Below are positions 1 through 501 of a DNA stretch of 501 nt, piece after piece. The stretch lies in sequence record MH607138.1, one strand, 5' to 3'. The position numbers and the translations under genes are program-made. Source of the DNA: a phage. How positions within the stretch are numbered: position 1 is the stretch's first letter; every line of letters starts with the position of its first letter. Under the pieces are notes generated by a model. That model searched no databases. It was not told the origin of the DNA and was given only the letters and a program-made list of their open reading frames with translations.

Positions 1-501
1 ATGCAGATCTTCAACATGCGTACCAACGACGAAGGTGTTCTGGGTCTGCGTCTGACCCTGTACAAAGACACCCGTGGTTTCTGGACCATCGGTGCTGGTA
101 TCTGGACCGTTTGCGCTAACCCGGTTTGCGCTGGTGCTCTGGACCGTATGATCGGTCGTAAATGCAACCCGACCGTTTGCCTGCTGAAAGCTCGTAAACA
201 GTTCAACAAAAAAGTTAACAAAGCTGGTCGTGGTGCTATCGCTGGTAACGCTTCTGTTAAACCGGTTTACAAATCTCTGAAAGCTGGTCTGGCTTCTGCT
301 CTGGTTAACATGGCTTTCCGTCGTGCTTCTTTCCCGTACAACGTTGCTTTCCGTTCTCTGCGTCTGCTGAAAAAACAGAAACGTTGGCGTAACCTGAACG
401 CTGGTAAAGCTTGCCGTAAATGGTACCGTCAGACCCCGAACCGTGCTAAACGTGTTATCAAAACCTGGGCTGGTGGTAAAGTTTCTCGTCGTGACATCGA
501 A
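1..501 (+). CDS. Phage T4-type lysozyme-like muramidase (GH24 / endolysin fold), synthetic codon-optimised variant; 167 codons, 3' end open (no stop codon in window)
   Basis: Seen in sequence: ATG at 1-3 and frame +1 open across all 167 codons (501 = 167 x 3). The other two forward frames hit stops early (e.g. TGA at 52-54 in frame +2, TAA in frame +3 near 116-118). Translation aligns by eye along its full length to T4 lysozyme as I recall it: MxIFxM..DEG at the N-terminus, LRLxxYKDTxGxxTIGxG, IGRxCN, KPVYxSL, INM, SLRxLxxKRW, WYxQTPNRAKRVI. Catalytic residues are conserved: Glu11 (nt 31-33), Asp23 (nt 67-69, = T4L Asp20), Thr29 (nt 85-87, = T4L Thr26). Codon usage is strictly one codon per amino acid (cgt, ctg, ggt, gct, aaa, acc, ccg, tct, gtt, aac, gac, gaa, cag, ttc, tac, atc, tgc, tgg, atg), so the DNA is a back-translated design. 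Product assignment rests on recalled T4L sequence, not a database search. Confidence 0.88.
   Translation, partial: MQIFNMRTNDEGVLGLRLTLYKDTRGFWTIGAGIWTVCANPVCAGALDRMIGRKCNPTVCLLKARKQFNKKVNKAGRGAIAGNASVKPVYKSLKAGLASALVNMAFRRASFPYNVAFRSLRLLKKQKRWRNLNAGKACRKWYRQTPNRAKRVIKTWAGGKVSRRDIE

Follow-up and report, generated by a model that had tools for sequence, protein, structure and literature searches.

The window, that is, the whole 501-nucleotide stretch of DNA analyzed here, is occupied by a single reading frame coding for a protein related to T4 lysozyme (T4L). Frame +1 is open throughout nt 1–501 and specifies 167 amino acids without a stop codon; the remaining frames and the opposite strand contained just three ORFs of 22–25 aa. 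No Rfam match was found on either strand of the window. The following features were distinguished:

1..501, + strand: artificial complete ORF (167 codons, ATG start, no stop) for a T4-type (GH24, PF00959) lysozyme-like polycation
19..21, + strand: Arg7 for Leu7, a charge where 105/105 natural homologues have Leu
28..33, + strand: Asp10-Glu11, both kept (E11 is the catalytic acid), columns conserved in 105/105
37..45, + strand: insertion Val13-Leu14-Gly15 right after the catalytic DEG motif, visible as the HMM insert-state 'vlg'
46..99, + strand: mostly kept block LRLTLYKDT-R-GFWTIG-A-G in the alignments, with the changes E22R and I29A
67-69, + strand: catalytic Asp23 (T4L D20), within the 46..99 block
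85-87, + strand: catalytic Thr29 (T4L T26), within the same block
100..138, + strand: rewritten IWTVCANPVCAGA, aa 34-46, with almost no parent identity, a net 2-residue deletion, His31 lost, and C38 and C43 gained
112..180, + strand: look-alike Cx4C pair, C38-ANPV-C43 and C55-NPTV-C60, with 3/4 Cys new
139..168, + strand: parent-specific LDRMIGRKCN, perfectly kept in the alignments
142-144, + strand: kept non-catalytic Asp48 (T4L D47), in a column with D in 94/104 naturals
178..237, + strand: helix-C region with the acid-targeted swaps D61L, E62K, E64R, E69K, D70K, and D72N in an otherwise kept context
271..282, + strand: Lys91 and Lys94 for D89 and D92, the D92 column being D in 99/105 naturals
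319..354, + strand: rewritten RRASFPYNVAFR, aa 107-118, in place of QMGVAGVAGFTN, with zero identical residues
388..417, + strand: rewritten RNLNAGKACR, aa 130-139, with D127R, E128N, A129L, A130N, L133K, S136R, and new Cys138
406-408, + strand: Lys136 (L133K) in an invariantly hydrophobic core column
418..459, + strand: perfectly kept 14-residue block KWYRQTPNRAKRVI, the longest identical run (shuffle p = 0.006)
460..501, + strand: rewritten C-terminus KTWAGGKVSRRDIE, with W158 and Y161 lost and the non-inherited D165 and E167 added

The coding sequence of the window is artificial and was made in silico. Every amino acid was specified by a single E. coli-preferred codon (19 distinct codons for 19 amino acids vs. 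49 distinct codons in the natural parent gene), and the synonymous-codon diversity, stop codon, and genomic context of a natural gene were all missing, the window being the ORF exactly. The use of one preferred codon per amino acid and the lack of a stop codon identified the window as an in silico back-translation, not a natural gene. A mutational origin at the DNA level was ruled out since all codons remained the single preferred ones. The blastn search against 50,697 phage genomes returned only 103-nt matches (~71% identity) in the conserved WYRQTPNRAKRVI region, and none of the natural DNA matches in that collection spanned more than 21% of the window. The DNA repeat GACCGTTTGC, present at 105–114 and 171–180, accompanies the Cx4C motifs, which we treated as generator repetition rather than as a metal site or disulfide pair put there by design.

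The PF00959 gathering cut-off of 22.3 bits was passed marginally (24.2 bits; natural T4-type members reach 48–52 bits), with E11, D23, and T29 in register with the invariant columns of T4L E11, D20, and T26. The nearest natural proteins were Mosigvirus endolysins of the JS09/LNA2 type, with 56–58% identity over 95% of the length; T4 lysozyme and T4 e-type proteins were ~45–46% identical to the window protein. The first-pass annotation had used T4L as the reference sequence. Judged by the identities (~58% vs. ~45%), the real parent is a Mosigvirus JS09 / vB_EcoM_LNA2-type endolysin, not T4 lysozyme itself. Searches of 5.8 billion clustered sequences, 1.84 billion representatives, and 50,697 phage genomes yielded no protein above 58% identity.

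With the Mosigvirus JS09-like gene e-type GH24 endolysins (vB_EcoM_LNA2, MZ311865.1; 'lysozyme R' of Shigella phage ESh27, P0001) the window protein shares D10/E11, D20, and T26 as well as the clade-specific residues N9, T16-L17, F24-W25, LDRMIGRKCN, V100, and KWYRQ, and with the LNA2 endolysin additionally N36, K122, and A131. The Mosigvirus parent has a net charge of +7 to +9, 17–18 acidic residues, 49 codons, and clade-HMM scores of 236–299 bits, whereas the window protein, with a net charge of +31 and 6 acids, differs by 5 indel events and 4 new Cys, scores 123 bits, and uses a single codon for each amino acid. Among solved structures, T4L variants in the PDB were the best sequence matches (E ~1e-31, residues 1–159). 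The domain order and the catalytic residues are the same as in T4 lysozyme (PDB 2LZM/1LYD, with hundreds of variants); unlike T4 lysozyme (+8), the window protein is altered at L7, R95, R96, Q105, M106, V111, L133, W158, and Y161, positions that we take to be buried or critical. The top PDB matches, T4L variants 144L and 146L, scored ~2 bits above wild type and have Leu at T4L position 129 and Trp at 153 in common with the window protein, which was taken as coincidence.

The protein contains 18 K, 19 R, 4 D, 2 E, no H, and 5 C residues, which gives a formal net charge of +31 (+30.4 computed at pH 7) and a pI of 11.4. The recount was identical to that of the first-pass annotation (18 Lys + 19 Arg vs. 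4 Asp + 2 Glu, no His, ~+31), and neither the charge nor the pI computation pointed to a normal charge balance. The contrast with the moderately basic T4L, drawn in the same annotation, was confirmed: T4L carries 13K + 13R − 10D − 8E = +8, with a pI of 9.8 (sequence in agreement with the PDB alignments). Among 136 relatives of T4-type lysozyme (140–185 aa) the net charge ranged from −7 to +12 (mean 5.6, SD 2.5), so the window protein lies ~10 SD above them, an excess over the natural range such as supercharging would give. Its acid fraction was 0.036 vs. the natural minimum of 0.067, and its basic fraction 0.222 vs. the natural maximum of 0.191, both for the 136 relatives. The charge was dispersed along the protein, the net charge of 15-aa segments varying from −1 to +6.

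Asp occurs at positions 10, 23, 48, and 165 and Glu at 11 and 167, exactly where they had been placed before (10/11, 23, 48 as T4L D47, and 165/167). In the alignment D10/E11 correspond to T4L D10/E11, D23 to D20, and D48 to D47, while D165 and E167 were newly acquired rather than inherited from the parent. Only 4/18 parental acids were kept vs. ~60% of other residues (Fisher p = 0.005), and 4/17 when the closer LNA2 parent was used (p = 0.008). The three invariant acid columns (D10, E11, and D20) were all among the four kept acids, with a hypergeometric p of ~0.005 that is optimistic because retention was blocky. Acidic residues were lost directionally, with those at the catalytic site left in place. 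At every position where an acid was lost, natural homologues have acidic or polar residues; therefore, those reversals fall at surface-type positions. The replacement pool contained 26% K/R and 3% D/E, and the swaps of T4L acidic motifs pointed out earlier were all recovered in the alignment (KDEAEK to LLKARK, NQDVD to NKKVN, DSLD to KSLK, and RWDE to RWRN).

Conservation and unseen substitutions were assessed against 105 natural homologues. HMM likelihood and natural-variation counts were taken as proxies for foldability, not as proof that the protein is unable to fold. Burial was gauged indirectly, from invariant hydrophobicity across the 105 homologues and from NMR cavity data (PMC4735865). 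The share of substitutions unseen in the 105 natural homologues amounted to 69–71% (47 of 66–68), compared with 1–12% in naturals of equal divergence and 7% in the ProGen design L056. Retention of parental residues varied between 47% and 54% across conservation bins and was 69% for invariant columns. In the clade-HMM the window protein scored 123.1 bits, naturals at least 236 bits, and L056 276 bits, whereas the parent with 68 random substitutions scored 119.8 ± 10.6 or 123.4 ± 10.7 bits. Hence, the substitutions were no more family-compatible than random ones. The pattern of identity with the parent was blocky (runs test p = 0.0006), with identical stretches alternating with 0%-identity ones, and the A-G dipeptide was seen 7 times vs. 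1.6 expected (p = 5e-5).

Charge changes made up ~1/3 of the ~80 differences from the parent; the ~50 non-charge differences comprised indels, four new Cys, Gly-to-Pro changes, and wholly rewritten segments. Three of the 17 new K/R in aligned columns lay in 105/105 large-hydrophobic columns (L7R, M106R, and L133K) and two replaced invariant uncharged polar residues (Q105R and S136R). Depending on the alignment, six to eight native K/R were lost, the invariant R95 among them. The conserved core and cleft of the clade were not preserved, as 9/29 invariant columns were altered (L7R, L32W/T, R95L, Q105R, G107A, F114A, A129L, S136R, and Y161 lost).

The same mixture of changes was seen region by region. 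The Val13-Leu14-Gly15 insertion, lying between E11-G12 and the beta-hairpin, is absent from all 105 natural homologues. In the helix-C region, the swapped acids included E62 (E in 101/105) and D70 (D in 73/105), and T59C, L66Q, and V75G were found there as further changes. The RRASFPYNVAFR segment carries Q105R at an invariant Q and M106R at an invariant hydrophobic position, together with G107A, G110P, V111Y, and F114A. For three of the residues replaced in aa 130-139 (A129, A130, and L133), the methyls are listed among the groups of T4L L99A that shift as O2 enters internal cavities (PMC4735865).

Altogether, these results argue that a Mosigvirus-type endolysin was probably rewritten in silico by a cationic-biased generative or algorithmic procedure and then back-translated. 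A natural JS09 / vB_EcoM_LNA2-type T4-type endolysin would have been the starting point or the nearest training example, and ~42–44% of the parent positions would have been rewritten with family conservation and 3-D burial ignored. Such a procedure would disfavor Asp/Glu and draw the replacements from a K-, R-, A-, G-, and N-rich pool. Some segments, including the blocks with the catalytic E11, D20, and T26, may have been passed on verbatim and others regenerated at new lengths, while in the long helix 60–80 and at positions 89/92 and 127/128 the changes fell mainly on acidic positions. Back-translation would then have followed, with one high-expression E. coli codon for each amino acid. We lean slightly toward an explicit objective behind the cationic bias over an unintended bias of the model. 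The kept D10, E11, D20, and T26 and the entire 137–150 cleft wall could reflect deliberate active-site protection, i.e., more design intent than blind rewriting. Since the rewriting fits the family no better than random mutation, we regard the window as artificial, consider its function doubtful, and do not count it as a biological discovery.

The first-pass annotation had favored deliberate surface supercharging and mentioned the bias of a generative model as a fallback; the latter turned out to be the better fit, given the random-level HMM score, the K/R in the core, and the unseen substitutions. Supercharging as competent design, in which an endolysin is given a cationic surface for the Gram-negative outer membrane with its fold and muramidase kept, seems unlikely. 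The net charge of +31 far beyond the natural range, the selective removal of acids with the catalytic ones spared, and the location of these removals at surface-type columns speak for it. The artificial origin and the directional cationization were upheld. The placement of the new charges did not fit. The changes were not confined to exposed, variable positions: 5/17 new K/R lay at invariant columns, both in the core (L7R, M106R, and L133K) and at the invariant cleft residue (Q105R). Native K/R were deleted, a step that supercharging would avoid, and the sequence gained four Cys, two Gly-to-Pro changes, and several indels. The family likelihood stayed at the level of random mutagenesis. Charges at buried positions, named earlier as an argument against design, were thus found in part, at L7R, M106R, and L133K, whereas the lost acids fell at surface-type positions. 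Structure-aware surface supercharging does not fit because of the core K/R, the lost K/R, the new Cys and indels, the unseen substitutions, the conservation-blind retention, and the random-level HMM score.

Comparison with known cationic proteins gave a similar picture. The window protein, with +31 on 167 residues (0.19 per residue) reached mostly by Asp/Glu to Lys/Arg changes, resembles the +36 GFP of Lawrence, Phillips and Liu from 2007, reportedly a supercharged protein. In classical supercharging, highly solvent-exposed non-conserved positions are altered and the rest is kept; in the window protein, unlike in such proteins, core and invariant positions were altered, native K/R were lost, and segments were rewritten. 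Artilysins carry a discrete polycationic peptide attached to an intact enzyme. No such polycationic or amphipathic fusion was present here, as there was no terminal tag and the alignment with the 162-aa endolysin ran end to end. With Artilysins and the ODM variants the window protein shares a presumed goal, more positive charge for action on bacterial envelopes. The ODM pipeline ranked generated lysozyme variants by their K+R fraction, and K/R enrichment of lysozymes (11.6% to 13.6% KR) is thus a published design aim that favors supercharging (PMC12392658). The ODM variants, however, belong to a LysM-containing lysozyme and bear few mutations with 13.6% K/R, unlike the window protein with 22.2% K/R and ~43% of positions changed (PMC12392658). 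The ODM lysozyme G732 was rejected as a matching design, being a different, LysM-containing enzyme. Literature searches turned up no supercharged T4 lysozyme or endolysin and no LM-generated cationic endolysin matching the window protein, and no provenance record for the sequence was found.

We also consider it quite unlikely that the protein was sampled from a ProGen-type family-trained language model, like L056, with an incidental cationic composition. L056 (PDB 7RGR; P0091) is likewise an artificial T4-clade lysozyme (168 aa vs. 167) of the same natural neighborhood, 73% identical to P0001, and the indels, verbatim blocks, and n-gram repetition (A-G ×7) are typical of autoregressive sampling. 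Unlike the window protein, L056 stays inside the family statistics (276 bits, 7% unseen, net +6 vs. 123 bits, 69% unseen, net +31), and a family-trained model sampled at normal temperature would leave invariant columns intact, whereas 9/29 were altered. The two proteins are just 39% identical, and derivation from L056 was rejected on these grounds. High-temperature or steered sampling would suit this explanation and the composition-biased rewriting equally, so the two overlap.

Undirected random mutagenesis or noise acting on the parent, with the charge excess arising by chance, would account for the HMM score, which matches that of randomly mutated parents, and for retention nearly independent of conservation, but appears highly improbable in view of the acid-specific loss (p = 0.005–0.008), the replacement pool rich in K/R (26%) and poor in D/E (3%), the blockiness (p = 0.0006), the A-G enrichment (p = 5e-5), and the indels. 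It is hardly credible that the window is simply the back-translation of a natural phage lysozyme, very divergent and highly basic, in spite of the PF00959 threshold passed and the catalytic residues kept, as nothing more than 58% identical was found in the three collections searched, long parent-identical blocks alternate with 0%-identity blocks, equally divergent naturals have at most 12% unseen residues vs. 69%, and the charge is 10 SD beyond the family range.

Under the preferred reading of a composition-biased rewrite, we infer that the product keeps its catalytic residues on paper as a +31 polycation. A stable T4L fold is unlikely because of the Arg/Lys now found at positions 7, 106, and 133 of the core, the changes of the invariant R95, Q105, F114, and Y161, and the insertion adjoining E11, and the protein is probably not a working enzyme. 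Its clade-HMM score, no better than that of randomly mutated parents, likewise speaks against a preserved fold and function. Single-sequence AlphaFold2 gave a pLDDT of 59.5 and a pTM of 0.50 for the window protein, with the natural parent as control doing no better (54.5 and 0.52), so that the prediction did not tell the two apart; Foldseek with the model of the window protein found no T4L match in the PDB (best E = 0.23). With the fold unlikely to be stable, non-enzymatic polycation effects on membranes or nucleic acids would be a likelier source of any antibacterial or binding activity than muramidase catalysis. It is very unlikely that the window encodes a purposeful polycationic lysozyme that folds, acts as an E11/D20-dependent muramidase, and kills Gram-negatives from outside without a permeabilizer. 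If it did fold and were active, the T4L fold would tolerate a +31 charge with charged residues at 7, 106, and 133, and the protein would be a candidate outer-membrane-crossing enzybiotic.

The window carries little weight for biology, being neither a natural system nor a design with signs of working. It is useful as an example of how to tell structure-aware design from composition-biased generative output. Four simple controls cleanly set the window protein apart from naturals and from L056, a validated language-model design: the diversity of codons, the share of unseen substitutions, retention in relation to conservation, and the HMM score in relation to randomly mutated parents. The rewritten C-terminus also contains the Chi octamer GCTGGTGG at nt 469–476, which we regard as accidental.

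The window was filled exactly by one open frame (nt 1–501; 167 codons) with an ATG start and no stop codon, and flanking sequence was absent. The remaining five frames contained three ORFs of 22–25 aa and nothing longer, and an Rfam search of both strands of the window gave no match. Throughout the ORF, one fixed codon was used for each amino acid, 19 codons for 19 amino acids (GCT, CGT, GGT, AAA, CTG, AAC, GTT, ACC, ATC, TTC, TCT, TGC, CCG, CAG, GAC, GAA and TAC, plus ATG and TGG), which is the set preferred by highly expressed E. coli genes. The gene of a natural homologue used 49 codons over 162 residues, and its GC content was 41% versus 50% for the window. 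Because a single codon per amino acid stands against 49 codons in the homologue, the DNA is an in silico back-translation of a protein, and the information therefore resides in the protein alone. The E. coli Chi octamer GCTGGTGG at 469–476, arising from the back-translated Ala-Gly-Gly, is almost certainly accidental.

A PDB sequence search with the 167-aa translation (the query) detected variants of T4 lysozyme (T4L) with E ~1e-31 over residues 1–159; the identity to T4L was just ~45%. The nearest natural proteins were endolysins of Mosigvirus JS09-type phages. 'Lysozyme R' of Shigella phage ESh27 (P0001), used as the reference parent, was 56% identical to the query, and the endolysin of Escherichia phage vB_EcoM_LNA2 (MZ311865.1) was 58% identical by tblastn and 57.7% over HMM columns. 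The query shared with its parent a series of specific, non-conserved residues (N9, T16-L17, F24-W25, LDRMIGRKCN, V100 and KWYRQ), with N36, K122 and A131 additionally matched by LNA2; the source was therefore a Mosigvirus-type endolysin and neither a family average nor T4L. When 1.84 billion representative proteins were scanned exhaustively with HMMER, only 45 hits were obtained, all of ≤48% identity, and no natural supercharged clade was present in the collections searched.

The top hits of that scan were T4L crystallization-fusion constructs (P0014–P0028, 258–514 aa); the library of 'public genomes and metagenomes' thus includes synthetic constructs, the T4L crystallization chaperones. The best solved-structure matches were the T4L variants 144L and 146L, ~2 bits over the wild type, whose printed alignments have, as does the query, Leu at position 129 and Trp at position 153 (T4L numbering); this sharing was judged coincidental. 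In several T4-like phage records (H20, H24, H25 and H30), the e-type soluble lysozyme was labelled 'baseplate hub + tail lysozyme' or 'baseplate subunit', probably by annotation transfer from gp5.

The extreme positive charge with few acidic residues, reported in the first-pass annotation, was confirmed. Recounting from the translation reproduced its figures exactly (18 Lys, 19 Arg, 4 Asp, 2 Glu and no His; net charge +31, or +30.4 at pH 7; pI 11.4), the acids stood where it had placed them (Asp10, 23, 48 and 165; Glu11 and 167), and the acidic T4L motifs that it had described as replaced were so in the alignment. Among 136 relatives of 140–185 aa, the net charge ranged from −7 to +12 (mean 5.6, SD 2.5), which places the query ~10 SD outside, with an acid fraction below the natural minimum and a basic fraction above the natural maximum. 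In the alignments, D10/E11 corresponded to D10/E11 of T4L, D23 to D20 and D48 to D47, whereas D165 and E167 lay within the rewritten C-terminus and were not inherited. The net composition shift was R +7, K +5, A +4, C +3, N +3, D −6 and E −6. Parental acids were kept in 4 of 18 cases (22%) versus 68% of bases and ~60% of other residues (Fisher p = 0.005; 4/17, p = 0.008 with LNA2 as the parent), and the replacement residues were K/R in 26% and D/E in 3%. The cationization of the query is directional. D10, E11 and D20, the three acid columns without variation across 105 natural homologues, were all among the four survivors, with a hypergeometric p of ~0.005 that is optimistic because these residues sit within preserved blocks; the fourth, D47, is inside the verbatim block LDRMIGRKCN. 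Well-conserved acids were lost nonetheless, namely E62 (101/105), D92 (99/105) and E22 (92/105).

The alignment with P0001 comprised 89 identities over 159 columns and ~80 differences with indels counted. The following features were recorded:

Window 37–45: insertion of Val-Leu-Gly (VLG) directly behind the catalytic Asp-Glu-Gly (E11-G12), present in 0/105 natural homologues
Region 31–45: net deletion of two residues, from the alignment
After G77 and in region 122–123: single-residue insertions, from the alignment
C-terminus: rewritten and lengthened, from the alignment
Nt 94, 130, 223, 241, 283, 400 and 469: Ala-Gly (GCTGGT)
Window 112–129 and 163–180: look-alike Cx4C motifs C38-ANPV-C43 and C55-NPTV-C60, derived from unrelated parental segments

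Identity to P0001 was blocky (66 runs versus 86.9 ± 6.5 expected; runs test p = 0.0006). The longest verbatim block, KWYRQTPNRAKRVI, spanned 14 residues, and in a 12-residue stretch of zero identity QMGVAGVAGFTN was replaced by RRASFPYNVAFR. The pattern suggests segment-wise copying and regeneration rather than point mutagenesis. Acids were lost to bases (8), polar (4) and hydrophobic (2) residues; bases were gained at 6 polar and 5 hydrophobic positions, and basic residues became non-basic in 8 cases by the MAFFT alignment and in 6 by HMM match columns. There were also 15 hydrophobic-to-hydrophobic changes, two Gly-to-Pro changes and four new Cys. The dipeptide A-G occurred seven times versus 1.6 expected (shuffle p = 5e-5), none of the copies being inherited, and V-C three times versus 0.33; both excesses look like an n-gram habit of a sequence generator. 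In the Cx4C motifs three of the four Cys were new, residue 138 is a fifth Cys, and the DNA repeat GACCGTTTGC occurs at 105–114 and 171–180. The Cx4C pair might imitate disulfides or a four-Cys metal site, although generator repetition is more likely.

The reading of the query as a supercharged T4L-like protein held with respect to artificiality and directional cationization, but not with respect to competent surface supercharging. Among the 17 new K/R in HMM match columns (column statistics from the 105 natural homologues), L7R, M106R and L133K hit columns occupied by a large hydrophobic in 105/105 naturals, Q105R and S136R fell in invariant uncharged polar columns, and T157K and N116R in columns where the introduced residue almost never occurs. 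Work from the Matthews laboratory reportedly puts the cost of a charge buried at M102 or L133 at several kcal/mol. Native K/R were lost through R8T, K43A, K83S, R95L (invariant), R96A and K154A and, depending on the alignment, at K35 and K159, which counts against supercharging because a supercharger would leave native K/R in place. NMR of T4L L99A placed methyls of L133, A129, A130, V111, V103 and L84 among those perturbed upon O2 entry to internal cavities (PMC4735865), and 6/6 of these residues were altered in the query.

As many as 47 of the 68 aligned substitutions (69%; 47/66 versus LNA2) introduced a residue unseen at its column in the 105 naturals; this fraction was 1–12% in naturals as distant from P0001 as the query (52–58% identity) and 3.9% on average (maximum 21%) in all naturals. 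Retention was nearly blind to conservation: across the four lower bins, 52%, 47%, 54% and 53% of parental residues survived, compared with 69% in invariant columns, 9/29 of which were altered. Against a clade HMM derived from these 105 naturals, the query scored 123.1 bits (naturals: minimum 236, median 282), which matches P0001 carrying 68 random substitutions: 119.8 ± 10.6 when residues were drawn uniformly and 123.4 ± 10.7 when they came from the query's replacement pool. With Pfam PF00959 the query reached 24.2 bits, barely above the 22.3 cut-off (naturals ~52). Altogether, the query is not a structure- or family-aware supercharging product; it is synthetic, and in statistical terms it equals a random rewrite, with a compositional bias, of a known endolysin.

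The ProGen artificial lysozyme L056 (P0091, PDB 7RGR), found among the parent's homologues with 73% identity to that Mosigvirus endolysin, served as the positive control for family-aware generative design. L056, which was crystallized, scored 276 bits with 7% unseen residues and a net charge of +6, in contrast to 123.1 bits, 69% and +31, so family-aware generative design looks unlike the query. Derivation from L056 was rejected at 39% identity only, and an Artilysin-type fusion was ruled out, the query having no appended peptide. Supercharged proteins have a similar net charge, but the query violates their restriction to exposed, variable positions. Enrichment of lysozyme in K/R is a published aim (from 11.6% to 13.6%; PMC12392658); no supercharged T4L or endolysin of the query's kind was found in the literature. 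With regard to the GH24/PF00959 family, the query passed the Pfam threshold and kept the catalytic residues but failed the conserved-core test, and an artificial T4-type endolysin derivative is a better description of it than a bona fide family member. Taken with the indels, the local repeats and the way in which copied blocks alternate with rewritten ones suggest that an algorithm generated the sequence; candidates would be high-temperature sampling of the autoregressive or inpainting kind, or sampling guided to a cationic, possibly antimicrobial-peptide-like, composition.

Single-sequence AF2 modelling of the query gave pLDDT 59.5 and pTM 0.50, and Foldseek with this model retrieved no T4L match; the natural parent, modelled under identical conditions, gave 54.5 and 0.52, so that the prediction did not discriminate between the two. 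On paper, the product would be a lysozyme-like polycation of the GH24 type that keeps E11, D20 and T26 as well as the R145/R148 cleft wall. A stable fold would be disfavoured by charges at three invariant core columns, the loss of invariant R95, Q105, F114, S136 and Y161, Pro and Tyr in region 108–113, the insertion adjoining the catalytic Glu and the five cysteines. A stably folded, catalytically competent enzyme is judged unlikely. Non-enzymatic polycation action (LPS, membrane or nucleic-acid binding, or aggregation) would more plausibly account for any effect.
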